Positions 11,956 through 45,826 of a stretch of DNA of 64,000 bases are shown piece by piece. A program made the translations under genes and the position numbers. The DNA comes from a virus (lineage: Duplodnaviria; Caudoviricetes), in IMG/VR virus record IMGVR_UViG_3300009031_000368, positions 64,001 to 128,000 of that record; one strand, given 5' to 3'. Position 1 is the stretch's first letter, and each line of letters opens with the position of its first letter. The notes under the pieces were generated by a model that made no database searches, had not been told where the DNA came from, and saw only the letters and a program-made list of their open reading frames with translations.

Positions 11956-13455
11956 TTACGGCAGGGTGACGTCGATTACGCCATAGAATTCAGGACGCAA
12001 CAGCTTCTTAGCATATCGCATCTTGATTCCCTTACGCGCCGAGAAGTCGTCAGGATCCTCAAGGGTCTGAGTCAGCTTCATCGGAACGTATGGTGCATAC
12101 ACGTAACCTGAGTCCAGGTAACTCTGTCCCTTAAGACCAACCAGGATTGTAGTCTGGTTAGCCATCAGCGGATCGATATATACCATCATTCGGTTAAACA
12201 GTGTACCGACTGCCTGCACGCCGAAATCACTTGACATCGGGCCATAGCTTGGCTGACGAATATGGGTCTGCATACCGTCGCCACCATATGGATTCTGCAC
12301 ATTCTTGGCATAAACCAGCGGTGCAAAGTCACCATGAGTAGTCAGCTGTTGCATATACGCGGCAATCTTTGGCGAAGTAACGATCCAGTTGGCAGGTGCG
12401 CGCATCGAACCAGTATGGATTTGAGCCGACATGGTGCTGATAACGGTCAACAGACCACGGATTCGGTTAATCTCATTCGGATCATCGCCACCACCAAGGT
12501 CATAACTGTCGGTGTATGAAGCATTGCTGATCAGGTCATTGATGATTTCTCGATCAACTTCAAGCGCCATCTGATTACTGAAGATGGCAACCAGTTCCTG
12601 CTCAGCATCCAGTCCATACATGGACTTCATGTCTTCCTGAGCGGTTGAACTCCATCGCGCCCGCATGCGTCGTTCAGTCGCCTTCACAACCTCCATGCTG
12701 ATTTCGATGTTGATCTCAGGAACCTGATCGTTCATTTCATTGTTGTACCAATAGACGGCAACAATGGTTGCACCATCGGCTGGCGCATCGGTGAACTTCA
12801 GGTTACTGACTCGTCCAGTCGTATAGTTGACGGTTCCGGTACCGGCTCCACCGAATGAGCCAGAACCATCGTCGACAACAACCTGAGTAGAATCATCCGG
12901 GTTGGTTGCCGTAATGGTAACGCTGATACCATTGGTGCTATCCAGTGGTCGCACCGGCTTCCAATTGAGTGTCGCATTCAGTCCTAGACCAGCTCCACCG
13001 TAATTGGTACCATCACCTGTTCCGACTGACTCTTCATCAATCTTTTCAGACGAATAGTTGGCACTGAAGGTCTGGATAACCTTATCGCCAGCAGTAATGG
13101 AACCCTTGGTGGTCGCATACTTGGCTTCGTAATAGAACACGGCGCCGTATGGGCCAGTCATCGGCTGAATTGACACCAATTCGTTAGCAATCAGGTTGGG
13201 GAAAATTCGCCTAATGGCCGGGAACAGATACTTGGTATAGGTAGCAATATTGCCAGTCAAAGTATCTTCATTCAGTGCGCCACGCACGAAGTTATACTGA
13301 TTGTTTAACAGAATGGCGGTTGCATTCCGCTTGTGTGGATCCTTAATGTTGCCAACCAGTGGTGCCCAGTTGCGCACAACCCTATTGACCCAACTATCAT
13401 CCTGAATTGTCCCGCGCACATCTTCCTGCATGGGCTTTCGATTTCTTGCTTGCAT
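11956..13455 (-). CDS. Major capsid protein (T4 gp23-like, HK97 fold) with an inserted beta-rich domain
   Basis: NWAPLV...AILLNNQ, LFPAIRRIFPNLIANELVSIQPMTGPYGAVFY, RRMRARWS, GLKGQSYLDSGYVYAPYVP, KGIKMRY motifs. Confidence 0.95.
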   Translation of the reverse strand: MQARNRKPMQEDVRGTIQDDSWVNRVVRNWAPLVGNIKDPHKRNATAILLNNQYNFVRGALNEDTLTGNIATYTKYLFPAIRRIFPNLIANELVSIQPMTGPYGAVFYYEAKYATTKGSITAGDKVIQTFSANYSSEKIDEESVGTGDGTNYGGAGLGLNATLNWKPVRPLDSTNGISVTITATNPDDSTQVVVDDGSGSFGGAGTGTVNYTTGRVSNLKFTDAPADGATIVAVYWYNNEMNDQVPEINIEISMEVVKATERRMRARWSSTAQEDMKSMYGLDAEQELVAIFSNQMALEVDREIINDLISNASYTDSYDLGGGDDPNEINRIRGLLTVISTMSAQIHTGSMRAPANWIVTSPKIAAYMQQLTTHGDFAPLVYAKNVQNPYGGDGMQTHIRQPSYGPMSSDFGVQAVGTLFNRMMVYIDPLMANQTTILVGLKGQSYLDSGYVYAPYVPMKLTQTLEDPDDFSARKGIKMRYAKKLLRPEFYGVIDVTLP

Positions 13456-13474: not shown

Positions 13475-16400
13475 TTAATCGTCAAGCCGGTCTGGAAATT
13501 GGACCGGATATGCACCTTTTCCGCCCGATTGTGCTATTAGCTCATCTAGCGGTGTTGATGTTGACTCTGTAAAACTTCTTCTTCCAAATGTGTCTTCTTC
13601 GACACTTCTTTCGTATCCTCTTCGCACACGCTCCCGCGCCTTCTCGGCCGCATACGGATCGTGTCTTGCATTTGAACTTTCTGCTAGAATTCTATCTATT
13701 TTTGATGAAGGTGCGCGTTCGCCGATAAGAGATGTTAATTTTTTACCATTTTTCATCTTATTGACGATTTCTGTTGCCCGGTTGGCACGCTCTTCAAGGA
13801 TTTCAACAGCACTCACATACTTTTGAAGTTCCCTTTCATACTGCTCCTTCATCTTTTCACTATTTTCCTTCAAAGCCTTAAGTCGTGAACCATACTTGCC
13901 TGATTCAATCTTTGCGCGTTCATGTTCTGCCGTCAATGCATTGATTCGGTCTTTTGATTCCGACAACAACTGCCTGGTTTCTGTAACTTCACCAGATAGT
14001 TTTAATGCTCTCGCCTCAGATTCAGTCAACCGCTTAACTTCGGCATTAAGACGATTCAATTCAATCTTTGAATCCCTTAAACAATCCTTACTGGCATCAA
14101 CGGTTGTCCTGGCTTCAGCCAATTCAGATCTAATGTTGGCAATATACTGGTCCTTGGCATCTACCAGTTTGGCCGTTTGGATTTCCACTTCCTTGAGGCG
14201 CTTAAGCTCACTGGATGATTCGGTCAGTAAATCCTTTAGACCTTGAACGCTTGCCGCAACTTCCGATACTTCGGCAAATTCGGCCTTCAACTGTTGGAAT
14301 CCTTCCAGCTGTGTCTTTGCCTTTTGAAGAATTCCACGAAGCTTTTCAACCTCTTCCGCCTTGGCTGATAACGATTCAATTTGATGCTTCAGTTCAATGT
14401 TCTCAACCGCAGCCGTATCGACAGGAATCTTGCCGATTTCCTTTGCCAGACGTTCTGCCAGTTCGTCAATCTCCGGTAATTGCATCGTATTAGTTACGCT
14501 TCCGGCAATTAAATCAACCATCGTGTCCTTGTTTTCATACATTGAAAACTTTTGAGCCAGATGATACTTGATGACTGCCCGTCGTCCAAATTCAACCGAT
14601 TCTGCCAGCTGATTCTTTGCGTCAGCCAGTTCGCATTCAATCCTGGCACCATTCTGCTGTTCACGCTTTACGCTGTTTTCCAAATCCTTAATGTATTCGT
14701 TGGAATCCTCTGAAAAGATGAATGGTCTGATCAGCTTAACGATACCTTCAATGGCCCGCTTAGCGCCAGCAACCGATGGATCTTCCAACATCGATTCACG
14801 CAGGTTGTCGGTCAGCTCATCCTTTGCCGCAACGACATCTTCAATCAATCGCCTGGCATAGATTTCCTTTATTCGCGACGTCTCGGTCCTTATCGCATTA
14901 CTGACCGCTTCCTCAACATCTGATTTGGAATACTGCTTATCGGTTACCGTTTGTTGAGTCGTTTCCAATAGGAACTTGTTGGCTTCCGGAATCGCGCGCT
15001 CAATCTCTTCAGAAATCGTTTTACCAATACGTTTCCTTACTTCCTCAACTGATGAACCGGCGATGCGCTCACTTTCAGCAAAAACATCCGGGTAAGCGGT
15101 TTTTGTGGCTGGATCGTAAACGACATCGAAGGTCATTAACCTGTAATCGTCACCAACAGATTCCGTTCCATCCTCAAGCTTGGTGGTAGATCCGTAACCG
15201 CGTGAACTGATACCAGGGTCTATGCCGGCTTCAATTAATCCAGTCAGAATCTTACCGGTTGGTGTTGGCAGAATTTCAGCTTCGCCGATGATTTCATTGC
15301 CTTCAATTCTTAAATCAGTGATGACGTGACTGACACGCTGAAGCCTTGTTTGCCCATCGCTGTTACCGGTCCAAAACGTATGGCCGTTTTGCTCCATGTA
15401 GAAGTTACCGTGATCAACCGATAGACAATAGATGCGACCAGCATGGTGCTCTTCTTCAATCTTCATGAATCTCTGATCAAGCCAAATGTGCTTGGAATTC
15501 GAGAAGTGCAACTGGTAAAGTGGCACCTTATTTTCTGCTTTGATGATCCTACCGGCGAATTCGTAATCACCATCAGGTTCAATGACAGAAATGCTACCAG
15601 CACGCCCAGTCTTAATCAAACACTCATGAAGGTCTTTTATAAGCTGCTCAGATACAGTGAAGACATCGTTCCTGATATTGGTGACATTTCCATGTCGTAC
15701 CGACTCAGCCTTCACTTCCTTAAACGTCTTTCCCGAATCTCTCCATTCACCATTAACCGTATGGTCATCGGTTCTGCTGTCAACAATTCTGCCATCACCG
15801 ATGGAAAACCAAAACAGCAATTCAGATAATGGACCCGGGCCTAGATTTTTGATCTCTGACGGAATATACTTATTGTAGCAGTCGCCAAGCGGCTTCAGAT
15901 AGTTGTAAAGCCTTGCGTCGTATGTCATATAACCGTCAGCATACTTACTCCATTGAATCTCAGGCGACATCTTGCTTAAGACTTCATCATAAATATACTT
16001 GGTTGACCATTCATTCTTTTGGCAAACAAACACAGCATATCCGCTATGGTTTTCCGACCTGCAACATCCTTCCGCGAGATAAATACCCATAAATGCTGCA
16101 AACACGTTTGCATCTATTACAAGGTCTTTTGACGCATCAGTTTTTGTTCCACGTAGTCCCTGTATGGCAGGCAACGTAAATGTTTTCGGTGATTCTGGAT
16201 TCCATTGAGCAGTTTTCGGAATTGCGGAATGACCATATGAAGCCCTGTTTGTAAAGATGGTTTCAGAAGTAACATACTCCTCAAACTCTCTCTTTTCACC
16301 AGGTCGTGTAACAAGAAGATTCCTGTGACCGGGAGTAAAAGTAGAATCGATACTCCTACCTTTAAAATGGTACACCGGTCCATCGTATGGCTCGTCGATG

Positions 16401-16801
16401 ATGGCATTCACGGTAGAGAGAACGGCTTTGCCATTTTTGCGGGACCAAGCCTTTTCACCTACGCCGATATCCCTGAACTTTTTCCACCCACTTTCAGTAA
16501 GTACTTGAAATTGTTCACTTTTCAGACAAGGATGGTCAAGTTCCCCCAGCAATTTCCTACCTTGCATTTTCTCTTCAAGTCGCTCCAATTCGCGCTTCCA
16601 GAGTGGTAACTCATATCGGCGATTGTTTTCGGTCGGCACACCGGCCAATGCGAACAATCCGCGCAGGTAGAGCTTCCTGTTACCATTGGCGGTAGCTTCA
16701 CCAAGCTCTGATTTGAATTTAAACGGAACAGTATCTATAAGAAGTCGTGGCTTTGTCATATTAATTTCCATATTTTTGCGCAAAATGTAACCTACAATCA
16801 C
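13475..16801 (-). CDS. Prohead core protease (T4 gp21-like) containing an intein, fused to a long coiled-coil scaffold-like region (likely start ATG 16759)
   Basis: GELDHP, VSHVITDL, ILPTPTGKIL, GISSRGYGS and FDVVYDPAT gp21 motifs; about 500 aa of coiled-coil at the C-terminus. Confidence 0.9.
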   Translation of the reverse strand: MIVGYILRKNMEINMTKPRLLIDTVPFKFKSELGEATANGNRKLYLRGLFALAGVPTENNRRYELPLWKRELERLEEKMQGRKLLGELDHPCLKSEQFQVLTESGWKKFRDIGVGEKAWSRKNGKAVLSTVNAIIDEPYDGPVYHFKGRSIDSTFTPGHRNLLVTRPGEKREFEEYVTSETIFTNRASYGHSAIPKTAQWNPESPKTFTLPAIQGLRGTKTDASKDLVIDANVFAAFMGIYLAEGCCRSENHSGYAVFVCQKNEWSTKYIYDEVLSKMSPEIQWSKYADGYMTYDARLYNYLKPLGDCYNKYIPSEIKNLGPGPLSELLFWFSIGDGRIVDSRTDDHTVNGEWRDSGKTFKEVKAESVRHGNVTNIRNDVFTVSEQLIKDLHECLIKTGRAGSISVIEPDGDYEFAGRIIKAENKVPLYQLHFSNSKHIWLDQRFMKIEEEHHAGRIYCLSVDHGNFYMEQNGHTFWTGNSDGQTRLQRVSHVITDLRIEGNEIIGEAEILPTPTGKILTGLIEAGIDPGISSRGYGSTTKLEDGTESVGDDYRLMTFDVVYDPATKTAYPDVFAESERIAGSSVEEVRKRIGKTISEEIERAIPEANKFLLETTQQTVTDKQYSKSDVEEAVSNAIRTETSRIKEIYARRLIEDVVAAKDELTDNLRESMLEDPSVAGAKRAIEGIVKLIRPFIFSEDSNEYIKDLENSVKREQQNGARIECELADAKNQLAESVEFGRRAVIKYHLAQKFSMYENKDTMVDLIAGSVTNTMQLPEIDELAERLAKEIGKIPVDTAAVENIELKHQIESLSAKAEEVEKLRGILQKAKTQLEGFQQLKAEFAEVSEVAASVQGLKDLLTESSSELKRLKEVEIQTAKLVDAKDQYIANIRSELAEARTTVDASKDCLRDSKIELNRLNAEVKRLTESEARALKLSGEVTETRQLLSESKDRINALTAEHERAKIESGKYGSRLKALKENSEKMKEQYERELQKYVSAVEILEERANRATEIVNKMKNGKKLTSLIGERAPSSKIDRILAESSNARHDPYAAEKARERVRRGYERSVEEDTFGRRSFTESTSTPLDELIAQSGGKGAYPVQFPDRLDD
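15362..16528 (-). mobile_element. Intein (389 aa) with a LAGLIDADG-type homing endonuclease, inside the prohead protease
   Basis: Begins CLKSEQFQVLTESGWK right after ELDHP; ends YCLSVDHGNFYMEQNGHTFWTGN followed by Ser; FMGIYLAEG and WFSIGDG helices. Confidence 0.92.
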
Positions 16802-19558: not shown

Positions 19559-21292
19559 TCAATATTGTTTCTTTTGCATTTCGCTTCGCAATTCCATCAT
19601 CATAGCCCTTGATTTCCTTACATCTCGGCCAACGACATCCATTCGCTCTGTTAATTCGCCTTCCGCGCGCTTAATTCTTGCATCAAGCAATTTACTGACA
19701 TTCCTTTCAGTCAATTGTCCAGCGTTTCGCTTCGTCGGCTTAACCGGCTTACGGAATGTAATGCTTTCTTCACCATAATCACCGCCGCTGTCCTGATTAT
19801 ATGCGTCTTCAATCTCAGCCTGTTGTTCCATTCCGAATGATTGGGCCTTAGCCTGCGTCTTCCCTTCGTCAATGATTTCATTCCTACGCTGTTTCCTGAT
19901 TTCCACAATCTCGTCATCGGTAAACTGCATGACGTTTTTCAAACACCATGTCAGCGATGTGCTTTCAAGAAGCGATTGTATCGTTTGCGCCTTGGCCGCT
20001 AGTGCTTCAATCTGAGACAGTTCATAAATCATTGTTGGCTTTGTCATTGCCAATGTCCATTCGGATTCGTCTGGATCTTTGTCAATAGCCAATAGGTGTG
20101 CGCGACAGACCTGTTTAAATCCAGTCATGATTTCACGCTGGATATTCATCACAGACCTGGCAAAGTTTACATCGGCATGGCTTAAATGCTTTTCTGGAAT
20201 ATCGGCACCGAATCCCAAATATGCGGCAGGAACCTTTAATGCACCTTGCAGTGCCTCTCTAAATCTATCGATATCTTCAGTTCCAGTCCATCCCAATCCA
20301 CCAATCGTTTCAATCCTTGCAGAATCCTTGCCATCTCGTGTGGGTATCCATAGATTTTCGTTCATCGACAACGGGGTAGCGCGCATATCGAGCCCACCCT
20401 TTTCGACATTGTAAAACTTCTTTTTACTATACTGTTGCTTCAATCTATTGATATATTGTCTGGCTTCAGATTCCGGCATACTGCCAACATCGATAAAGAA
20501 TGCAAGCCGCTCTGGACTTCGTTCCAGCCGATACATCAAGCTGGCATCCTCCATCATGGCAAGACGCTTCCATACCGTCCTGGCCGCTTCAACGGCACTT
20601 ATTCCATATACAGATCTGATGTGTTTGGCGCGCAATCTCCAATGGACTATTTCCCATGGCTTATACAGTATCGCACCAGTTGCCGTTATAGCCTTATCGC
20701 GCGAAGCATTGGTATTGACAAAATATTCCATGTCGGTGTCGTTGAATTCAAACCGCATATTGGTATCTTGTATATATCCCAACGTCGTTCCACTAACATC
20801 CATAATCCTTCGCATGCTGGCAGGCGGGAGATAGTTTATGCCAATGACGCCAGTTTCATCAATAAGTATTTCTCCGTATGAGTTCCCCATGTGTGCCAGT
20901 GTCCTTGCCAATGGCCATATATCGGCTTCAATTTCAAGAGCACCATGTAGGAGACCGATCAATTCAGCCTTTGTCCAATCGTCTTCCGTAACGACCCACA
21001 TGCATATACCACGATTGTAATCCGGTTGTGATATATCGTTGGCATATACGTCAAGTGCCGTTTGGATGTATGAAAAGTCATCCATCGCTTCATAATCTCG
21101 ATACCTGGCATGAAGATCGGCTTCGACTTCCAGCATCGGCCTAATCAACGAATAGTTTGATTCAGATACTCCACCGCTACCATCTACACCGAATGTGCCG
21201 CTAATCGGTGACTTAGATGAGCCGGAAATGCGCGAATCCTTCTTACCGAAATACTGTTTAAATTTATCAGATATATTGTTGGACCAACCCAT
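19559..21292 (-). CDS. Portal vertex protein (T4 gp20-like)
   Basis: YRDYEAMDD, YLPPASMRR, EAARTVWKRLAMMEDASLMYRLERSPERLAFFIDVG, ENLWIPTRDG, ALKVPAAYLG. Confidence 0.95.
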   Translation of the reverse strand: MGWSNNISDKFKQYFGKKDSRISGSSKSPISGTFGVDGSGGVSESNYSLIRPMLEVEADLHARYRDYEAMDDFSYIQTALDVYANDISQPDYNRGICMWVVTEDDWTKAELIGLLHGALEIEADIWPLARTLAHMGNSYGEILIDETGVIGINYLPPASMRRIMDVSGTTLGYIQDTNMRFEFNDTDMEYFVNTNASRDKAITATGAILYKPWEIVHWRLRAKHIRSVYGISAVEAARTVWKRLAMMEDASLMYRLERSPERLAFFIDVGSMPESEARQYINRLKQQYSKKKFYNVEKGGLDMRATPLSMNENLWIPTRDGKDSARIETIGGLGWTGTEDIDRFREALQGALKVPAAYLGFGADIPEKHLSHADVNFARSVMNIQREIMTGFKQVCRAHLLAIDKDPDESEWTLAMTKPTMIYELSQIEALAAKAQTIQSLLESTSLTWCLKNVMQFTDDEIVEIRKQRRNEIIDEGKTQAKAQSFGMEQQAEIEDAYNQDSGGDYGEESITFRKPVKPTKRNAGQLTERNVSKLLDARIKRAEGELTERMDVVGRDVRKSRAMMMELRSEMQKKQY

Positions 21293-21304: not shown

Positions 21305-23329
21305 CTATTCATCAAATCCGAATATTATTGGTTGCTGGAATGGCTCACGCTTTGTTCTATTGGATGGATTTCGCACACCGATGACCCATGAATCATCTTC
21401 ATACTCTTCACGGCTAAATGAACCAGAGATGATGCCCATCGGACGAGATGGAGGATTTTCGACAAGACTGCAAACGACACCGGATGCCGATACGGCAAGG
21501 TCATCGTGTCCTTCTGTTCCATCAATATTAAGATTCGGATGATCAATGATTCCAGTGTTTGGATCCAGTTCAAGGTTTATCAATTCTCTCCTTAATGGAG
21601 AATATGGATAAACGATCAATCTGTCTTCATAGATGGCTGCTTTAATCCGTTCCAGTGCTCTCGACTTACCAGATTCACCGCTAATCAGCGAATGCTTGAT
21701 GCCACGTTCCTCAAACTTTTGCCGCGTTTCTAAATGATGATAACTATCCGTTGTGCAATGAACGATATTGAATCCATGTGCCTTAAGGTCATATATGAGA
21801 GCGCGCAATGCTCCCGGTGTAATCTCACCATTCTTTGGTGCAATTACTTGCATGATGAAGTCAATATAGATCTCTGGCGAATATTCGATATACTCCGTTC
21901 CATCTGGCGCAAGCTTGACGACATCGATCCATCTTGAAATATGCCCAACACAGATGCCGGCCGGATCTTGTCGGCCAGCTGAAAGGTCGATATGGGCATG
22001 ACGTGGTGCATTTGGATTAATGTGGGGGATGTAAACCTTTTCCTTATATCCGCCTTTTAATCTACGCTCAGCCTGACGGCAAAGTAGGTGCCATTCAAAG
22101 TCGCCCGATTCACCACAAGCCCATGTTTCAACGGTGAATGGATGATATAGCCCTTGTTTGAAACAGTTGTCGATCTTGTCGCGCCGGCCAATAAAGGTCT
22201 TTGTCGGCATCGTGCTGACACCAGCATGGTCGCGGATTGCAAGATCTAGATCGTTTTCAAAGACCTGTCGTAGGAATGGATGGTCTGGAACAGGAACTAT
22301 TTTGGCAAATCTATCCGGCCCTGATATTTCTTTCCTTACATGCTCTACTTCATCATTCGTTAGTATTCTATTTGAACACTGGTCGTCGCCGACCAATACG
22401 TAAAATCTCTCCTTGGGATATTGCTCCGGTATAAGTTCCCATTTTGCATACTCTTTTACCATTATTTTGTTTTTAGAATCTCTCGCAGCCTTCACTCTTT
22501 CATCCGTGAATGATCCAACGACATTCTTGGATGAAGCAAGTATCATGATCCCAGGTTTAATACCCGTTCCAGTAAATCGGCTTCTGATACGAGACAATAA
22601 TGCGGTATATTGTTGGTAGGCGACTCCTTTGTCTGCACGGGCTGATCGTTTACCTTCATAAAAGTTAGCTTCGTCAAGAGCTCCTCCGTAAACGTTTCTA
22701 CCAAGTAAGCCTGGTGATCCTGGAGATGCTGTAATGATTGATATATTTTTGGGGAAGTCTATAACGCCAGCTGATACCTTGTATCCGAGCTGTTTAAAGT
22801 ACGGAGATGATTCCAAGTTTGCAATTATGTCTGCAAAAATACCGCGTCGAACCTGTTGTAAGTCGACCGACAATACACCAAATGCAATGTTTTTACCATC
22901 CATCAATCCAAGCTGCCGTTGTGGATTTGCCAGGCAATATATCTGATACACCATGTAAGGAATTGCAAGCGCGCAGTATGTGCTTTTCCCTGTCCCGACA
23001 CCGCCAGATATAATTGCTTCATAGTAGTCGCCTTCAAACATTTCAATCAAATTTTCGATTAATGGTTTGTATGTTCCGGTGCATACTTCACCAAAATAAT
23101 ATGGATCTGAATAAAACGTCTTAGGCGACACCGGCCGTTCAGAATAATGGACTGATTCCAATACATCCAGGATTTCAGATTCACCACCATTATCTAGCTC
23201 GGCAAGTGCCTGCTCCAATACTTCGCGCTCTTCCGGCGAACATGAAGCAATCATGGCCTGAAGCTCTTCAAATTCCTCTTCCGGCGTTTTTACAGATATA
23301 ATCTTACCGTTAAAATCGATTAGATGCAT
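21305..23329 (-). CDS. Terminase large subunit
   Basis: Walker A GGVGTGKS, Walker B ALDEANF, nuclease AHIDLS and GHDDLAVS; adjacent to the portal. Confidence 0.93.
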   Translation of the reverse strand: MHLIDFNGKIISVKTPEEEFEELQAMIASCSPEEREVLEQALAELDNGGESEILDVLESVHYSERPVSPKTFYSDPYYFGEVCTGTYKPLIENLIEMFEGDYYEAIISGGVGTGKSTYCALAIPYMVYQIYCLANPQRQLGLMDGKNIAFGVLSVDLQQVRRGIFADIIANLESSPYFKQLGYKVSAGVIDFPKNISIITASPGSPGLLGRNVYGGALDEANFYEGKRSARADKGVAYQQYTALLSRIRSRFTGTGIKPGIMILASSKNVVGSFTDERVKAARDSKNKIMVKEYAKWELIPEQYPKERFYVLVGDDQCSNRILTNDEVEHVRKEISGPDRFAKIVPVPDHPFLRQVFENDLDLAIRDHAGVSTMPTKTFIGRRDKIDNCFKQGLYHPFTVETWACGESGDFEWHLLCRQAERRLKGGYKEKVYIPHINPNAPRHAHIDLSAGRQDPAGICVGHISRWIDVVKLAPDGTEYIEYSPEIYIDFIMQVIAPKNGEITPGALRALIYDLKAHGFNIVHCTTDSYHHLETRQKFEERGIKHSLISGESGKSRALERIKAAIYEDRLIVYPYSPLRRELINLELDPNTGIIDHPNLNIDGTEGHDDLAVSASGVVCSLVENPPSRPMGIISGSFSREEYEDDSWVIGVRNPSNRTKREPFQQPIIFGFDE

Positions 23330-25516: not shown

Positions 25517-26044
25517 TTAAATTGATGGTTTGATTGAATCGGTGACTTTATCGGCTTGAAGAACTGTATCTTGAACTTCAATATCTGATTCAACAGTAAC
25601 TACAATCATCCGGACGCCCGGATTTGTTCCATATCTCTTACTGATTGTAATATTTACGACCTGATTATCATCCTTAATGACTACACCTTTTATTGCGTCC
25701 TCGACAAGTTTACAAATATTAGAGCAGTCAGGAGTAACTATTGGTAAAAGCTCATGTTTTAGCGCGGCCTCGTGCTTCTTTTTAGAAAATGAAGTCGGTA
25801 TAGGGAATGTCGCTTCTATCCGGATATGAACCGCGCCAACATATGGTGGTCGTACCGTCTCACCGTTCTGGTACGCTGTTGCCGCATAGAATCTCACTTC
25901 AGCCTCACGGCTCACCGTTTCTGGATCCGCGTATGTTGACACAAATTTTCCGACACGTCTAAATTTTGGAGACTTCTTTCCTGCCGGTTTCCCTGGAACA
26001 AAAATATCAATCAATGTTTGCTGCAACTGATGGCACTCCTTCAA
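25517..26044 (-). CDS. rusA: RusA-family Holliday junction resolvase
   Basis: VPGKPAGKKSP, VTPDCSNICKLVEDAIKGVVIKDDNQVV; the first Asp of the usual PDxDN motif appears as PDCSN. Confidence 0.8.
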   Translation of the reverse strand: MKECHQLQQTLIDIFVPGKPAGKKSPKFRRVGKFVSTYADPETVSREAEVRFYAATAYQNGETVRPPYVGAVHIRIEATFPIPTSFSKKKHEAALKHELLPIVTPDCSNICKLVEDAIKGVVIKDDNQVVNITISKRYGTNPGVRMIVVTVESDIEVQDTVLQADKVTDSIKPSI

Positions 26045-26417
26045 TCTCTATATCGCAATGTGTTATGATGAAACCATCATCGATAACGTTATCTGTTGTG
26101 GAACCATATCCGGATAACCTGGCGCTGATTGAATATATGGGCTGTCGTTGTTCAAGAATCTGATGTAAAATATTTCCTTGTGGTGTCGCAACAATTTCGA
26201 TATCTGCGACCACTATATCATCGTCATCAACACACATCTCCGTTACACGGTGTGATACTTCGCCCAGCTTCGAGTCTGACGCTGAACCAGTATAGATACG
26301 ACCATACATTGGAAATATTGCCCGGCCGATGGCACGTTCAACGACTTCTCTGGGATATATGTTGCCATTACGGGTTGGCTGGCCGGTTTTCATTCCTTTC
26401 ACATTACATATCTTCAT
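26007..26417 (-). CDS. Truncated paralog of the prohead protease; catalytic ELDHP motif absent
   Basis: GQPTRNGNIYP, VSHRVTEM, IVATPQGNIL and ISARLSGYGST align to 13475..16801. Confidence 0.85.
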   Translation of the reverse strand: MKICNVKGMKTGQPTRNGNIYPREVVERAIGRAIFPMYGRIYTGSASDSKLGEVSHRVTEMCVDDDDIVVADIEIVATPQGNILHQILEQRQPIYSISARLSGYGSTTDNVIDDGFIITHCDIEIEGVPSVAANID

Positions 26418-26941
26418 TTACTATCCCGGTGTTCTTTTCTAACCTGTACCAGTAATTGAATTTCTGGCTCAGACAATCCAGTATTCTCTCTAAGATAGAC
26501 AGCATATTGTTCGTCGTCATACCCGCGACTATTGGCATATGATGCAAGCCAAGACACTGTTGTTATTTGTCGCTCTCTCAATATTGAATCAATATCCTCA
26601 TCAGAAAACTTCATTATATTCTTTAACATCCATTGGCTCGAAAGCCTGTCGGCTGCTACATTTCGTTCGTTTTGCAATTTCTCGATTTGTGCATTATTCA
26701 AAACCAGATACTCCACAATAGTCTTTTTGAACTCATCTTCATTGAAGTCATTCATTTCAACATATTGTGCAATCAATTGCGCGGCCATGGTGATGCTGTT
26801 AGACATCTGACTAGATAACCATTCCGGTTCAGGAAATCTGTCACCGTCGATATCTTTCAATACATAATTCCGCATATCACGAACACGGCCCATTTGGATA
26901 TCGATCAATTCACTCATTAAAGTCTTAACGTCCATTATCAT
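26414..26941 (-). CDS. Paralog of the portal C-terminal region
   Basis: IDGDRFPEPEW / NAQIEKL / SSQWMLKNIMKFSDEDIDSI versus portal IDKDPDESEW / LSQIEAL / SLTWCLKNVMQFTDDEIVEI. Confidence 0.8.
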   Translation of the reverse strand: MIMDVKTLMSELIDIQMGRVRDMRNYVLKDIDGDRFPEPEWLSSQMSNSITMAAQLIAQYVEMNDFNEDEFKKTIVEYLVLNNAQIEKLQNERNVAADRLSSQWMLKNIMKFSDEDIDSILRERQITTVSWLASYANSRGYDDEQYAVYLRENTGLSEPEIQLLVQVRKEHRDSK

Positions 26942-27107
26942 TTCTCCTCTTAATCGCCATTTTTAAGTTGTTAAGATAATGCTTCGCCTGAACATCTGAC
27001 AGACTACCAACATCTATAAAGAATGCCAATCGTTCTGTAACCGGCATACGCTTCATTCTGACTTTTCCATCTGTTCCAATCGTCTTACAATATTTCATAA
27101 CTGTCAT
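26925..27107 (-). CDS. 60-aa paralog of an internal portal segment
   Basis: ERLAFFIDVGS is identical (11/11) to the portal; SDVQAKHYLNNLK versus PESEARQYINRLK. Confidence 0.85.
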   Translation of the reverse strand: MTVMKYCKTIGTDGKVRMKRMPVTERLAFFIDVGSLSDVQAKHYLNNLKMAIKRRNDNGR

Positions 27108-27790
27108 CCCTTTCCATATCTGGCTTCAATCGCCAATCTGCCTAGCTCAACTTCATCATCTGACATCATCACGGTATCTGATTCACCAATCTCGTTATAG
27201 GTTATTGGAACCGGTGGGCTAAAAACATATCCGGCATCCCGTTTAGCTTCCGCCTCTACTTTTGACTGCAACTGTTTCAACAGATCTTTAATGGTCTCTG
27301 TTGGTATTTCTTTCATCGCTGCTTCAATAGCCGCTTGCGCCGATGCCATCTCTTCATCGGTAAACCGTCTGGCGCTATTGGTGCCCATCCGGCTCTCAAC
27401 CGTATACCATTTTGGTGTATCGGTTAAGCTGTCACCGGTCGTTGTTTCAGACGTTGTGCCATCTTCAAAGAATGACGCATCATCGATCATTGCACCATAC
27501 TTATGGATGCCGCGTAACGGTTGAAAAGAACATATCGGCGTTGCAACGATTCTAACATGACTGATCTGACTACATCCATGGATGCATCCACCTGGAATAA
27601 ATATTGGCCATGCACTGGTCTGTGTCGTTATCGGACATCCGCACCAACAATTACCTACGTTTTTACTCTCCATCACACTCGTCCTCTGATTGATCGCAAC
27701 ATTCAAATGTGTGACAGATGCTGTTGACATAAATATTACTTTTGCCTTTTTCTGTAATGATGTAAAAGCTTGGGATAGTCTTTTGTTCAA
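27104..27790 (-). CDS. Protein containing a paralogous fragment of the TerL ATPase (Walker B region)
   Basis: LRGIHKYGAMIDDASFFE versus TerL LLGRNVYGGALDEANFYE; RFTDEEMASAQ versus SFTDERVKAAR. Confidence 0.65.
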   Translation of the reverse strand: MNKRLSQAFTSLQKKAKVIFMSTASVTHLNVAINQRTSVMESKNVGNCWCGCPITTQTSAWPIFIPGGCIHGCSQISHVRIVATPICSFQPLRGIHKYGAMIDDASFFEDGTTSETTTGDSLTDTPKWYTVESRMGTNSARRFTDEEMASAQAAIEAAMKEIPTETIKDLLKQLQSKVEAEAKRDAGYVFSPPVPITYNEIGESDTVMMSDDEVELGRLAIEARYGKG

Positions 27791-28157
27791 AGTATGCCAA
27801 GCGCATCGTTACACCTGTTTCTTGCTGAATATCGGAAATATGCTTCAATACTGTTTCAACATTAGGGACGACACGGAATCCAGTTAAACGGCTGTCTGGA
27901 TTAACGAAAGCATTCATGTCAACAGTATCGCCATTTTCTTTAAATGCGAAGCCATTAACCGACGAAACGACTACACTTGGAGTCCACTTTCTGAAAGTAG
28001 TGTGGTGCATGATATCACTGTGTTCAACCATACCGCCAAGCCTGTCTTCCAGACTATCCGACACATATGTTTCCAAGTCTTTAGTCACCCGAGCCACATC
28101 CATTTTCAGAACACCGATATCATCAATAATAAGGTTGACATCACTGACTGTCTTCAT
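27663..28157 (-). CDS. Hypothetical protein, tandem paralog of 28154..28690
   Basis: Shared SVNGFAF, VPNxxxVxxH and ETGV motifs. Confidence 0.7.
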   Translation of the reverse strand: MKTVSDVNLIIDDIGVLKMDVARVTKDLETYVSDSLEDRLGGMVEHSDIMHHTTFRKWTPSVVVSSVNGFAFKENGDTVDMNAFVNPDSRLTGFRVVPNVETVLKHISDIQQETGVTMRLAYFEQKTIPSFYIITEKGKSNIYVNSICHTFECCDQSEDECDGE

Positions 28158-28690
28158 TGTCCGTCTCCATTCGCAAACCAGTCTAAATCGTTAGACTCTT
28201 CAGAATCGCACATACAATTTTCACAATGGTCTTCATAAAATGAAACGTATAACTTATTACGTTCGCCATTCTTGTACACATGAAACCTGTTAACCGTCTG
28301 TTGTTCACAACGGGCAAGCATCACTTCCACACCTGTTTCTTCAGAAATTGCCCTTAAATGTTCCATAACAACATCATGGTTTGGCACAAGCCGTTCTCCG
28401 CCTGTTTCCTCTTGAAAATTAGGACCAATATCAATCGTACCACCATCATCAGTAAATGCAAATCCATTAACAGATGTTACTGCAACGTACGGCCTATATG
28501 GAAACTGAACGTCATGAACATCGCTATCCTGATAGAAATTATCTGTATGAAATACAGGCATACCGATTCTAGCATCCAATTGACTATCGATGTACTCTGA
28601 TAACTGCTGAATCTTTGTATCAATATCAAAACTTAGTGTGGCAGTCTGCCGGATTAATTGTTCCACTTCTTTTGCCATTACCATAAACAA
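28154..28690 (-). CDS. Hypothetical protein, tandem paralog of 27663..28157
   Basis: Same shared motifs; 4-bp start/stop overlap. Confidence 0.7.
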   Translation of the reverse strand: MFMVMAKEVEQLIRQTATLSFDIDTKIQQLSEYIDSQLDARIGMPVFHTDNFYQDSDVHDVQFPYRPYVAVTSVNGFAFTDDGGTIDIGPNFQEETGGERLVPNHDVVMEHLRAISEETGVEVMLARCEQQTVNRFHVYKNGERNKLYVSFYEDHCENCMCDSEESNDLDWFANGDGQ

Positions 28691-31013: not shown

Positions 31014-32255
31014 TTAACGCATCCTTTCGATCTTTAAACCACCATCAGTTTCGATAGACTGTAGAAACATTTTAGCATGACGGATGGCGTTTGTAACGAA
31101 TGGTGATACATTGTTGTAATCATTTGTATCGACAATCACCACATCATATTGATGTGGTGGATCAAATCCTTCATGACTATCTTTCGTCGCTTTGATGCAA
31201 TCAATCTGTAACAGCCTATCCATCACCTGACTATTATCAAATCGAAGGAACGGTCTCGGATATAGCGGCTTAGCGAAATCAAGTAATGTCGATGCCCGCT
31301 GATTGCCAATATACAAAATTCTCATGTCTGAATTACTTTGTGTTGATCGGAAGTAACAATACCACAACCCGGCCAACATCATCGCGGTTGATTTTCCAGT
31401 CGCCCTGCTACCAGTTACCAGATATTTTCCATCCGTGGCAGTTCCGGTACGACATGCAAACATACCATCCAAAACCTGGTAAGTATTGTAACGTTCGTTT
31501 CTTCGGTCCATTCCCCATATTGAACCAAGATATTCGACCAGAGTCTTTGGCTTTTTATTATCAACCGCTGGCCCATGCACACCATAGACGGCCAATTGCT
31601 GCTGTGACAGATTATCAAAATTCCTGGATATCGACAAATCGCCATCGGTTGAATTATAAACGATAACGCTACACCAGTTATTTCCAATCCTTGATTGCAT
31701 TCTGGAACGCATGTCATTATATGACAATGCATCTTGTAAGGAACCTCTGACATCAAAAGTTAATGCATCCCAACAAGTCATCACGACATTACGTCCTAGT
31801 GTCATACATTGAAATGTAGAACTACCAACTGGACGGACTGAGATAGCCACGCCAATTGTATTAAACACAATATCACTATTTAATCTAATATTTCCATTCA
31901 ATCCAGCTGAGTCAAGTACATGACATAATGCTTTTGCCAGAGATCGCCCTTCGTTAGTGTAATAAAGGATCGTAATCGGCGCATTAGGTGCCAGTCCAAT
32001 CATCTGTCGATACCGTTCACCACCAATCTCCTGTATTTGTTTAATATATCCCGCAATCAATTGCATTGTGGCAGTCGTCTTACCGGAACCTGGACGGCCT
32101 GAAATTCTAATGGTGCCTGTTGGAAATACATCGGGCAGCTTGCCTAATGGAATGGACTTTCCTGTTTCCTCTTCCATTACAAACTGTTTGAGAACCTCAA
32201 TCGCATCTGTTACTTCTTTTCGGTTACCGGTATCTACCTCAATTGACAGTTTCAT
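31014..32255 (-). CDS. Tandem degenerate P-loop protein paralogous to the TerL ATPase domain
   Basis: ISGRPGSGKTT, RQMIGLAPN, LGRNVVMTCWDALTF and MRSRMQSRIG versus TerL ISGGVGTGKST, RQLGLMDG, LGRNVYGGALDEANF and LLSRIRSRFTG; second P-loop VTGSRATGKST. Confidence 0.7.
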   Translation of the reverse strand: MKLSIEVDTGNRKEVTDAIEVLKQFVMEEETGKSIPLGKLPDVFPTGTIRISGRPGSGKTTATMQLIAGYIKQIQEIGGERYRQMIGLAPNAPITILYYTNEGRSLAKALCHVLDSAGLNGNIRLNSDIVFNTIGVAISVRPVGSSTFQCMTLGRNVVMTCWDALTFDVRGSLQDALSYNDMRSRMQSRIGNNWCSVIVYNSTDGDLSISRNFDNLSQQQLAVYGVHGPAVDNKKPKTLVEYLGSIWGMDRRNERYNTYQVLDGMFACRTGTATDGKYLVTGSRATGKSTAMMLAGLWYCYFRSTQSNSDMRILYIGNQRASTLLDFAKPLYPRPFLRFDNSQVMDRLLQIDCIKATKDSHEGFDPPHQYDVVIVDTNDYNNVSPFVTNAIRHAKMFLQSIETDGGLKIERMR

Positions 32256-42341: not shown

Positions 42342-43016
42342 TTACCTTAAATTCAATACTATGTAAAATTCCGGCCTTGCTGGATGTTGGAAGCAATTTA
42401 CCGTAATTTTGTCATGTTGTTCCATCACGTCACCGATACCCACCAGATATCCGGCGTCATAGCTTGACCGTCCTTTAAAGCCAAGGATGATTTGTCGTTC
42501 AGGCACAACTGGGTGAGTAAACACCTTTAACTGCAAATATCTGGATGTTCCGATTTCGGTTAACCCGGTACCTGGTTCTGCCGTTCGGTTTAACGCTACA
42601 TCTGGAATTGTCTTATCGTTGACAATCATGAACGTTGCTGGACTTCTAATCGTATCGGTATGTATGGTGTTTGACGCAACACCAATTTCCAATTCAAGCT
42701 TTTCGGCATCAACATCCATCACGTTAGCTCTCGACATAATGCCACAAACGGCTGACCGCTCAATGGTCGCAATGATGTCGTTCAATGCTTTCGCCTTAAC
42801 GGTTTGCAACATGTCTGGACCAACCTGTTTATCGGCTATGTCGAGATTTATTTCTTGCACGCTACCATCTTCGCCTTTAACGACTTTTGCCATATACCAG
42901 TGCAGCGAGGTATCTTCACTTACATCATGAATTCCAACAATACTGTTTAGACTAGAGCCTTTAAGTGCCGACATCAACTGACTTCTAACATCACTCATTG
43001 TTTTATTCTCCTTCAT
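42342..43016 (-). CDS. Paralog of the C-terminal half of the major capsid protein
   Basis: SVQEINLDIADKQV / SNTIHTDTIRSPATFMIV / IILGFKGRSSYDAGY versus MCP QVPEINIEISMEVV / SAQIHTGSMRAPANWIVT / ILVGLKGQSYLDSGY. Confidence 0.85.
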   Translation of the reverse strand: MKENKTMSDVRSQLMSALKGSSLNSIVGIHDVSEDTSLHWYMAKVVKGEDGSVQEINLDIADKQVGPDMLQTVKAKALNDIIATIERSAVCGIMSRANVMDVDAEKLELEIGVASNTIHTDTIRSPATFMIVNDKTIPDVALNRTAEPGTGLTEIGTSRYLQLKVFTHPVVPERQIILGFKGRSSYDAGYLVGIGDVMEQHDKITVNCFQHPARPEFYIVLNLR

Positions 43017-43485
43017 TAGTTTTTAATCGCTCAATACGAAACATTACATCAATAAAAATTTTACCATCCACGGCTTGCGCTATCAATGACTTAGACGCCG
43101 CAACGGCAAGACGGTTCAACAAATATTCTTCATCGTCCATGTGGTATGGAATACCCGGCTCATCTTTATAATAAAATAAGCACGCATTCAATGCGTTGAC
43201 TGTCGCGTCATCATATGCTGTAACTATATCATCGAACGGATAATATATAATTGTAATGCCAGCATCTGTCAGATTAGAAGCTGTTCGTTGTATTGCCATA
43301 AACAATAACCTGACAAACCTTCTTACCTGATCTCGAAATTGTTTGACACCTTCGTCAGCAATATCCTTCACATATTGAAGCTGTCTATCATAAATTGAAG
43401 CTAACGCTAATTTATCTCCACAATATGTATTGCTAATCAGTGGCTTCCACTTTTCGACAAGTTCATTATTCACCGTTTCATCCAA
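43003..43485 (-). CDS. Paralog of the N-terminal part of the major capsid protein
   Basis: NELVEKWKPLI...LASIYDRQLQYV...LLFMAIQRTASNL versus MCP NRVVRNWAPLV...TAILLNNQYNFV...YLFPAIRRIFPNL. Confidence 0.75.
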   Translation of the reverse strand: MDETVNNELVEKWKPLISNTYCGDKLALASIYDRQLQYVKDIADEGVKQFRDQVRRFVRLLFMAIQRTASNLTDAGITIIYYPFDDIVTAYDDATVNALNACLFYYKDEPGIPYHMDDEEYLLNRLAVAASKSLIAQAVDGKIFIDVMFRIERLKTNEGE

Positions 43486-45088: not shown

Positions 45089-45612
45089 CTGAACCTGCCA
45101 ACACCGTCATACTCTAGCCACTTTTGCTTAACTAATAGCTCTGTCGCGATAGAAGACGAAAGCCCATCATCGGAATACCCTAACAGTTCATCAATTTTGT
45201 CACATATAACATCGGAGTCGGTCCATTCGGTAAAACATGAGAGCTGCAACAGTTCAATGCCTTCAGGCGTATGAAGAGTAATATCTCGTTTGCAATTATC
45301 GTCTAGATCTATCTGATGATTGCGCTCAAGTCTTTTAACCATCTTGGTAAATTTATTACAAAAACACGCTAACTTTGTCCAATCTACTTTACGCATAAAA
45401 GTTGTGCTGCTGTTAGGCAGACCACTACTAACGATCAATATGTATTCATCACCAATTTTTGAGACAGAAAATTGAAAAGGATTATTACGAAATTCATCCT
45501 CATCTATACTTGCTGTTAAAACAAAATCACTCATCAGATACTCCCGCAAGTCGCTTAAGCTCTCCTGTCGACGCCCCAAGTTCATCGGCGATATCGTTAA
45601 ACCCTGAATCAT
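45073..45612 (-). CDS. Hypothetical protein
   Basis: 179-aa ORF overlapping the upstream gene. Confidence 0.5.
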   Translation of the reverse strand: MIQGLTISPMNLGRRQESLSDLREYLMSDFVLTASIDEDEFRNNPFQFSVSKIGDEYILIVSSGLPNSSTTFMRKVDWTKLACFCNKFTKMVKRLERNHQIDLDDNCKRDITLHTPEGIELLQLSCFTEWTDSDVICDKIDELLGYSDDGLSSSIATELLVKQKWLEYDGVGRFRWIKS

Positions 45613-45826
45613 CTGGTGTAGGTTCTATATCCGGTTGTTCATCGGTATCGTGTTCCCATCGCCTAGAGGCAATCACCGACAATACATCAAGCTGCAACCT
45701 GGCGACATTTGTCACATTAGGATTTAAACATCCCATGGCTGCTTCCTGCTCTACTGAAAACTCGAGCCGTTTACGGTTCAAGCCTGCCAACATGACCAAT
45801 TCATCATATGTACTAAATTCACTCAT
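45527..45826 (-). CDS. Truncated paralog of the probable small terminase
   Basis: LNRKRLEFSVEQEAAMGCLNPNVTN versus LNSVRLETAMEQEASMGFLNPNVTN. Confidence 0.85.
   Translation of the reverse strand: MSEFSTYDELVMLAGLNRKRLEFSVEQEAAMGCLNPNVTNVARLQLDVLSVIASRRWEHDTDEQPDIEPTPDDSGFNDIADELGASTGELKRLAGVSDE

Follow-up and report, generated by a model that had tools for sequence, protein, structure and literature searches.

The 64,000-nucleotide stretch of DNA considered here, hereafter the window, spans bases 64001-128000 of the 231.7-kb IMG/VR virus record IMGVR_UViG_3300009031_000368 (estimated completeness 76%), which derives from an uncultured groundwater jumbo phage. On its minus strand, four small open reading frames (ORFs) tile positions 26007-27790 with overlapping stops and starts, and a RusA gene comes next. 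Three of these ORFs code for pieces of a T4-type portal protein and prohead protease, and the fourth, the first in reading order, holds a stretch suggestive of TerL. The string reads as follows (lengths in amino acids, aa).

27104-27673, minus strand: first ORF, 189 aa from the ATG at 27673, or 228 aa from a TTG at 27790
26925-27107, minus strand: 60-aa ORF carrying a piece of the portal
26414-26941, minus strand: 175-aa ORF carrying portal crown helices (173 aa from the ATG at 26935)
26007-26417, minus strand: 136-aa ORF carrying an S77 protease core
25517-26044, minus strand: RusA-type Holliday-junction resolvase gene, the downstream member of the same gene string

It is well supported that the four small genes of the cluster are real and translationally coupled, that they descend from an old and diverged second copy of a TerL-portal-protease module, and that none of the small proteins can do the job of its parent. 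The comparators are the phage's own head genes, which are T4-like yet very far from those of cultured phages; the closest match of its portal among 50,697 phage records is that of Microcystis phage Mel-JY01, at 29%.

21305-23329, minus strand: real TerL, 674 aa
19559-21292, minus strand: real portal, 577 aa (205 bits against the Portal_T4 profile)
13475-16801, minus strand: real prohead protease, 1108 aa in fusion with a long coiled-coil tail, its S77 domain split by an intein
11956-13455, minus strand: gp23-type capsid gene

On the minus strand, this real module runs from a 245-aa gene through TerL, the portal, and several small genes to the protease-scaffold fusion and the capsid gene. The pieces in the small cluster keep the module order and are located just upstream of the real module.

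Reading of the minus strand bears out the claim of a preliminary description of this DNA that the four ORFs are joined by overlapping starts and stops: successive overlaps along the cluster measure 4, 17 (or 11), and 4 nt, and the last ORF is itself overlapped by the RusA gene. When codon usage is scored by log-odds, with 75 long ORFs of the genome as the training set, the three well-supported ORFs reach 0.21-0.28, compared with 0.23 +/- 0.07 for the long genes, and every other frame scores negative. Clear Shine-Dalgarno-like sites are present at three of the four starts: GAGGA lies 8 nt before the ATG at 27673 of the first ORF, GGAAAGGG precedes the start of the 60-aa ORF, and AAGAGGAGA precedes the ATG at 26935 of the 175-aa ORF; the start of the protease-like ORF has a weak site alone (GGGA). 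The frames are identical across all independent assemblies, and they are not sequencing errors because the same DNA, 99.95-100% identical, is found in groundwater contigs and one soil metagenome from at least four studies. A programmed frameshift fusing the 60-aa and 175-aa ORFs was considered and discarded, since no slippery site occurs at the junction and a strong ribosome-binding site precedes the 175-aa ORF itself. The neighbours of the cluster, which lies outside the head module, are recombination, replication, and DNA-metabolism genes rather than late genes. A search for T4-type late promoters found none, and no RNA sequencing run was found to contain the sequence of the cluster.

Among the four, the 60-aa ORF offers the closest view of what has been retained. 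Its residues 17-55 match residues 255-291 of the phage's own portal at 49% identity (expect value, E, 1e-10), a match that stands at E 2.5e-8 when all ORFs of the genome are compared and that upholds the earlier identification of a portal segment here. Against Pfam Portal_T4 (PF07230), the ORF aligns to positions 204-235 of 433 alone (E 2.8e-4, 20.2 bits, with a cut-off of 22.9), and homology to the portal sets in with the initial codons of the open frame, as it would at the edge of a deletion. Aligned with T4 gp20, residues E25-R55 (26943-27035) correspond to D281-R311, which form the first clip strand, the clip tip, and helix alpha-6, and the small protein ends 5 residues later. The clip domain of T4 gp20 comprises residues 279-358; within it, the equivalent segment makes the only main-chain contacts between portal subunits, and N291, M292, R295, and K296 at the tip face TerL (gp17), onto which the tip docks (PMC4493910). 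Mapping the retained segment onto T4 gp20 thus places it at a subunit-bridging, TerL-docking part of the clip; assignment to the portal stem was rejected because the published T4 domain limits place it in the clip. The 60-aa protein is accordingly a free-standing, naturally occurring version of the clip strand, tip, and helix of a portal, a derivative of a larger oligomeric protein that has kept an interaction surface and lost the functional domains.

This segment has an experimental precedent in T4: PMC4493910, citing Lin, Rao and Black 1999, describes a 24-residue peptide covering gp20 residues 288-311 as a ligand of gp17 and an inhibitor of packaging. The peptide represents the same portal segment as D32-R55 of the 60-aa protein. 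Unlike the synthetic peptide, the 60-aa protein is the product of a natural gene and carries the preceding clip strand together with 24 unrelated N-terminal residues; its tip differs from that of the phage's own portal (SLSDVQ in place of SMPESE). Residues 17-55 are 49% identical to the own portal, 46% to the portal of Pseudomonas phage pf16, and 44% to that of Agrobacterium phage Atu_ph07; within one fully conserved stretch, ERLAFFIDVGS, three lineage-specific residues are common to the 60-aa ORF and the own portal only.

The 175-aa ORF adds a second portal piece, from a different part of the protein. Its residues 84-147 (26501-26692) match residues 426-492 of the own portal (30%, E 2e-5; shared pattern W.LKN.M.F.D.EI), in agreement with the earlier suggestion of a paralogue of the portal C-terminus, and the matching part corresponds to T4 gp20 458-510, within the crown (451-524). 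Residues 1-83 show no portal similarity and no detectable relatives, and the ORF as a whole gives no match to the Portal_T4 profile. Given their size and their lack of a wing domain, neither the 60-aa nor the 175-aa protein would be expected to form a portal ring. A 752-bp metagenome scaffold carries the region of the 175-aa ORF at 91% identity, with an unrelated tail and 80 bases of the protease-like ORF (window 26148-26227) spliced in; it is most likely an assembly chimera and could alternatively be a recombinant variant.

The 136-aa ORF is a protease copy from which catalysis appears to have been lost long ago. The PHROG 207 profile (head maturation protease) recognises it from position 47 to 168 with E 7e-9, and it matches both halves of the S77 domain of the main protease; its Pfam PF03420 score of 13.1 bits is below the cut-off of 27. 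In an alignment with T4 gp21, the proteases of S-CAM3, Mel-JY01, immuto, Atu_ph07, and LR756511, and the spliced main protease of this phage, the motif GELxHP is invariant in all seven canonical proteases, and the 136-aa ORF has GRIYTG at that position, five of the six residues being replaced; the preliminary description of a gp21 paralogue without GELDHP was therefore correct. The catalytic-serine motif reads SISAR-LS-GYGS, in which the first Ser aligns with T4 Ser140 and the loop has a two-residue insertion relative to G-[IV]-S-S-R-G. As in the S77 family (T4 gp21, PDB 5JBL; PF03420; PHROG 207), about 120 residues are colinear and VSHRxT, TPxGxIL, and GxGS are kept; unlike the S77 proteases, the ORF has no catalytic His, has the insertion in its Ser loop, and is ~60-75 residues shorter, missing the N-terminal ~37 residues and the C-terminal tail of T4 gp21. 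The possibility that LGEVSH preserves the catalytic His, the intein site having undergone a deletion, was set aside because the multiple alignment puts LGEVSH on the downstream RVSH strand. An AlphaFold2 model of the ORF reached a predicted local distance difference test score (pLDDT) of 51, and a Foldseek comparison with the PDB returned nothing significant (T4 gp21 at E 0.5, which is no evidence). The replacement of five of six motif residues would have needed a long time after catalysis was lost, so this copy appears both dead and old. By a rough estimate, a randomised frame of 136 codons stays free of stops with a probability of ~0.002. An open, family-like, dead protease is thus probably the best internal evidence that at least one gene of the cluster has been selected as a non-catalytic protein.

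The first ORF is less readily placed. Its start is disputed between gene callers, which begin it at the ATG at 27673, giving 189 aa, or at M101, giving 128 aa. Numbered from the TTG, residues 101-228, the C-terminal 128 aa, score 0.38 in codon log-odds and are strongly coding; residues 40-100, which are Cys/Trp-rich and contain the TerL-like stretch, score -0.03, as non-coding DNA would. No Pfam, PHROG, or protein homologues of this ORF were found. The TerL-like stretch is as follows.

27455-27565, minus strand: possible relic of a TerL strand and Walker B, RG...MIDDASFFE compared with RN..ALDEANFYE in the own TerL

Nine of 28 residues are identical to the own TerL, with E 0.01 for the single pair and 0.33 in a region-wide tblastn search. 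Two of 1000 shuffles reach the same score (p ~0.002), and a four-sequence TerL profile puts the piece at the Walker-B strand, as it does for four of 500 shuffles (p ~0.01); the PHROG 2 (TerL) profile finds nothing here at E<=10. The ORF has no Walker A and no RNase-H-like nuclease domain, its sole candidate motif being MIDDA for ALDEA, so that the piece is suggestive of a TerL relic at best. The preliminary picture of a miniature, colinear set of head genes thus holds for the two portal pieces and the protease, three solid members of four; its Walker-B fragment of TerL does not hold to that standard.

The age of the copies bears on the reading of ERLAFFIDVGS, which is coded at 27003-27035 in the 60-aa ORF and at 20480-20512 in the own portal gene. 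Both DNA stretches were read, and the 11/11 identity with five synonymous codon differences that had been noted earlier is accurate. The protein-level constraint on the fragment that had been deduced from these synonymous changes does not follow from them: over all gap-free aligned blocks between the small and the main copies, the proportions of synonymous (pS) and nonsynonymous (pN) differences are 0.64-0.88 and 0.30-0.46, synonymous sites are saturated, and the pattern is therefore no proof of such constraint. Saturation does mean that the copies are old. The 11 conserved codons indicate purifying selection somewhere on the path, which could have acted inside the full-length portal of another phage.

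Searches for relatives returned the cluster itself. All other contigs with cluster genes are 99.95-100% identical to it. No related loci were found among viral contigs searched with the 175-aa ORF, the 136-aa ORF, and TerL, or among Joint Genome Institute (JGI) metagenomes searched with TerL, and the 175-aa ORF has no relative among the phage records. Word-indexed searches with the 175-, 136-, and 189-aa proteins (5.8 billion clustered proteins for the 175-aa one) recovered only the queries themselves, and a full HMMER search of 1.84 billion representatives with the 175-aa protein gave only one chimeric scaffold and two repeat-protein artefacts. The ESM Atlas yielded low-confidence models and no usable neighbours.

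Head-gene pieces also occur elsewhere in this genome, outside the cluster. Two loci in the window are of this kind.

42342-43485, minus strand: two adjacent capsid-like ORFs (160 and 224 aa) that weakly and colinearly resemble the major capsid protein
45527-45826, minus strand: 99-aa ORF sharing 51% identity over 45 aa (E 9e-9) with the 245-aa gene that immediately precedes TerL

The two capsid-like ORFs, which have 14 nt in common, correspond first to the N- and then to the C-terminal part, as would a gp24-type paralogue that had been split. Far downstream, a 145-aa ORF (genome 228793-229230) matches capsid residues 161-235 at 36% (E 7e-8). These wider-genome pieces do not keep the order of the real module, which makes simple decay in place less convincing.

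Profile scans with Portal_T4, S77, and Gp23 were extended to ten other phages with T4-type heads. Extra head-gene matches were found in one of the ten, the 595-kb uncultured megaphage LR756511, which has four such ORFs; no second portal or protease match was found in T4, Atu_ph07, Mel-JY01, immuto, LR756508, SCTP-2, XG4, RM378, or S-CAM3. In LR756511, an 86-aa ORF matches Portal_T4 positions 204-234 and ends 2 residues on, is identical to the phage's own portal at 14 of 32 residues, and begins with a leader of the Tat (twin-arginine translocation) type (Pfam TAT_signal E 0.0056, below the cut-off). A 297-aa ORF carries an S77 core over profile range 46-171, matching that of the 136-aa ORF, in which both catalytic residues are lost (GELGMP and RSRG); its RR-containing hydrophobic leader is recognizable by eye only, Pfam TAT_signal giving no match. 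A 171-aa ORF covers positions 190-307 of the Gp23 profile, where the 224-aa ORF of the window (42342-43016) covers 197-317, and the C-terminus of a 100-aa ORF is 57% identical over 44 residues to the phage's own capsid protein. About 600 bp downstream of the 86-aa clip ORF, beyond a 178-aa ORF, comes a gene for an HNH-type endonuclease.

LR756511 and the phage of the window thus have in common the end of the clip segment, a dead S77 copy, and the capsid profile range; they differ in that the pieces are scattered in LR756511 and clustered in the window. The nearest relatives of the LR756511 copies are that phage's own genes, and the copies show no specific kinship to the ORFs of the window; therefore the pieces arose, or were homogenised, separately in each lineage. 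Common boundaries in independent cases favour functional units over random deletion scars.

Taken with the coding frames, the ribosome-binding sites, the dead yet open protease, and the retention of the clip segment, this megaphage counterpart favours the view that the ORFs of the cluster are likely functional, maintained fragments. As to what such fragments might do, we tentatively propose, with something short of even confidence, that they are domesticated interface mimics of head proteins. Each product would retain a surface through which an oligomeric head protein binds, and would engage the partner of that surface while not itself assembling. Because the equivalent T4 segment bridges subunits and docks TerL, and because the T4 peptide blocks packaging, the 60-aa protein is predicted to bind the phage's own TerL or, by strand donation, the clip hairpin of a free portal subunit. 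Its effect might be to restrain packaging or portal assembly, or to protect TerL and the portal, up to the point at which proheads are available. The dead protease, for its part, may bind the partners or substrates of the protease with no cutting.

The proposal has parallels in eukaryotes. Truncated Gag-derived genes hamper related retroviruses in animals, and RTL8 acts against PEG10 (PMC11684626); in these cases, as in those of eukaryotic microProteins, a small derivative keeps a surface and titrates its parent or a partner. The phage ORFs, unlike microProteins and RTL8, belong to a different domain of life; the likeness is one of analogy, not homology. The principle that small mimics derive from larger proteins is known, and we found no published description of it for the present setting. 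A broader and more doubtful extension is that large phages repeatedly make stand-alone competitive binders from interface segments of head and packaging proteins, which would constitute an undescribed class of regulators or counter-defence factors; its examples could include the portal clip strand-tip-helix, a capsid C-terminal motif, and the protease core without catalytic residues.

Several observations weigh against interface mimicry. The trait is sporadic, the nine other T4-type-head phages having no such ORFs, and no diverged homologue of any of the four proteins exists in the databases searched, so that all are orphans. Conservation of the 60-aa protein is strongest in the clip strand, outside the tip that contacts TerL. 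A complex prediction for TerL and the 60-aa protein gave evidence neither way on binding, the twin-arginine-type leaders of the LR756511 copies are ill-suited to a purely cytoplasmic role, and any rationale for a phage gene that inhibits its own packaging is a guess only.

The chief competing reading, conceivable if unlikely, is that the cluster is a decaying remnant: fairly recent deletions would have pared down a second head module that was foreign or had been displaced by module exchange, leaving idle ORFs that happen to be open. The order of the pieces and their position just upstream of the real module would follow naturally from such a history, as would the deletion-like edge at which portal homology starts in the 60-aa ORF and the non-coding-like codon statistics of the TerL-like part; that all the proteins are orphans known only from near-identical copies of one phage, with nothing similar in nine related phages, is consistent with it as well. 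A remnant would nevertheless have to retain ~1.7 kb of open frames whose codon scores are normal and most of which follow ribosome-binding sites, and a protease copy that has lost five of six invariant-motif residues and yet is open and family-like, which requires long survival after loss of function. Nor does decay account for an ORF in a second phage that ends at the same portal boundary.

The identity of the parent proteins raises a different prospect, that the pieces act as anti-defence decoys, binding and blunting host sensors. TerL and portal proteins are sensed by Avs1-4 (PMC13581612), and prohead-protease cleavage switches on the cyclic oligonucleotide-based antiphage signaling system, CBASS (PMC12991175), through which protease-triggered CD-NTases (cGAS/DncV-like nucleotidyltransferases) would be the sensors concerned. 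The location of the cluster among DNA-metabolism and not late genes would suit this role, and a protease that binds without cutting could shield the cleavage loop. Avs sensors, however, are reported to enclose entire folded cores (PMC13581612), more than a 31-residue segment can provide, and sensor binding normally activates; the export-type leaders of the LR756511 counterparts fit poorly with a cytoplasmic decoy, and nothing specific favours the role towards Avs2 or Avs4 that the preliminary description implied. We consider decoys improbable. The Pfam and PHROG scans matched the cluster proteins to no known anti-defence family.

Still less probable is that the dead protease core and the portal-like pieces are minor components of the prohead or virion, built as structural or cargo proteins into the prohead core or the portal vertex of a large capsid. 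S77 proteases are packaged in the prohead core, and the wider genome holds several capsid-protein-like pieces. Extra head proteins are, moreover, numerous in jumbo phages (PMC5694885 and PMC10052503). The genes lie, however, outside the head module among recombination and replication genes, and most related phages do not have the trait. At a similarly low level of probability, the truncated subunits might be weapons that disrupt how related phages or satellites infecting the same cell assemble or fill their heads, as would accord with dominant-negative truncated structural proteins established elsewhere (e.g. RTL8 against PEG10, PMC11684626) and with the overall divergence of the pieces from the resident genes (30-49%), except that the most conserved stretch is identical to the own portal, lineage-specific residues included, so that the resident phage would also be hit, and that no competitor or satellite is known.

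Should the small proteins act as interface mimics and bind TerL, the portal, or protease partners, they would represent an unnoticed layer of phage control or protection built from recycled contact surfaces. They would also be natural, evolved inhibitors of the contact between packaging motor and portal, which has so far been probed with synthetic peptides and mutants only, and would open a concrete route to studying how phages deal with host sensors that target these conserved head proteins. As mere remnants, the ORFs would still preserve traces of an ancient second head module from a phage lineage that has been sampled very poorly.

A few further features of the window and of related genomes deserve mention. 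Directly upstream of the cluster, two tandem minus-strand paralogues (27663-28157 and 28154-28690) are 32% identical over 150 aa (E 3e-22); they match no family and show no similarity to the head genes, and the idea that they are copies of a 127-aa gene of the head module was dropped for want of any similarity. A 413-aa P-loop nucleoside triphosphatase (31014-32255, minus strand) has two Walker-A-like sites and a marginal PHROG 2 match (E 7e-4 genome-wide); its reading as a degenerate terminase ATPase was not confirmed.

The main protease is interrupted by an intein of ~389 aa (window 15362-16528), which extends from Cys92 to Asn480, ends in ..TGN|S, and contains LAGLIDADG-like blocks. The intein lies directly after the catalytic-His motif GELDHP, exactly where the S77 profile match breaks, and its match to Pfam Intein_splicing reaches only E 0.014. 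In the 484-kb phage LR756508, the protease match is broken at the same profile position. The portal frame of LR756508 (146009-149425) is 1387 aa long and gives three separate Portal_T4 matches (3-120, 189-309, and 314-431), a pattern that probably reflects two insertions, perhaps inteins.

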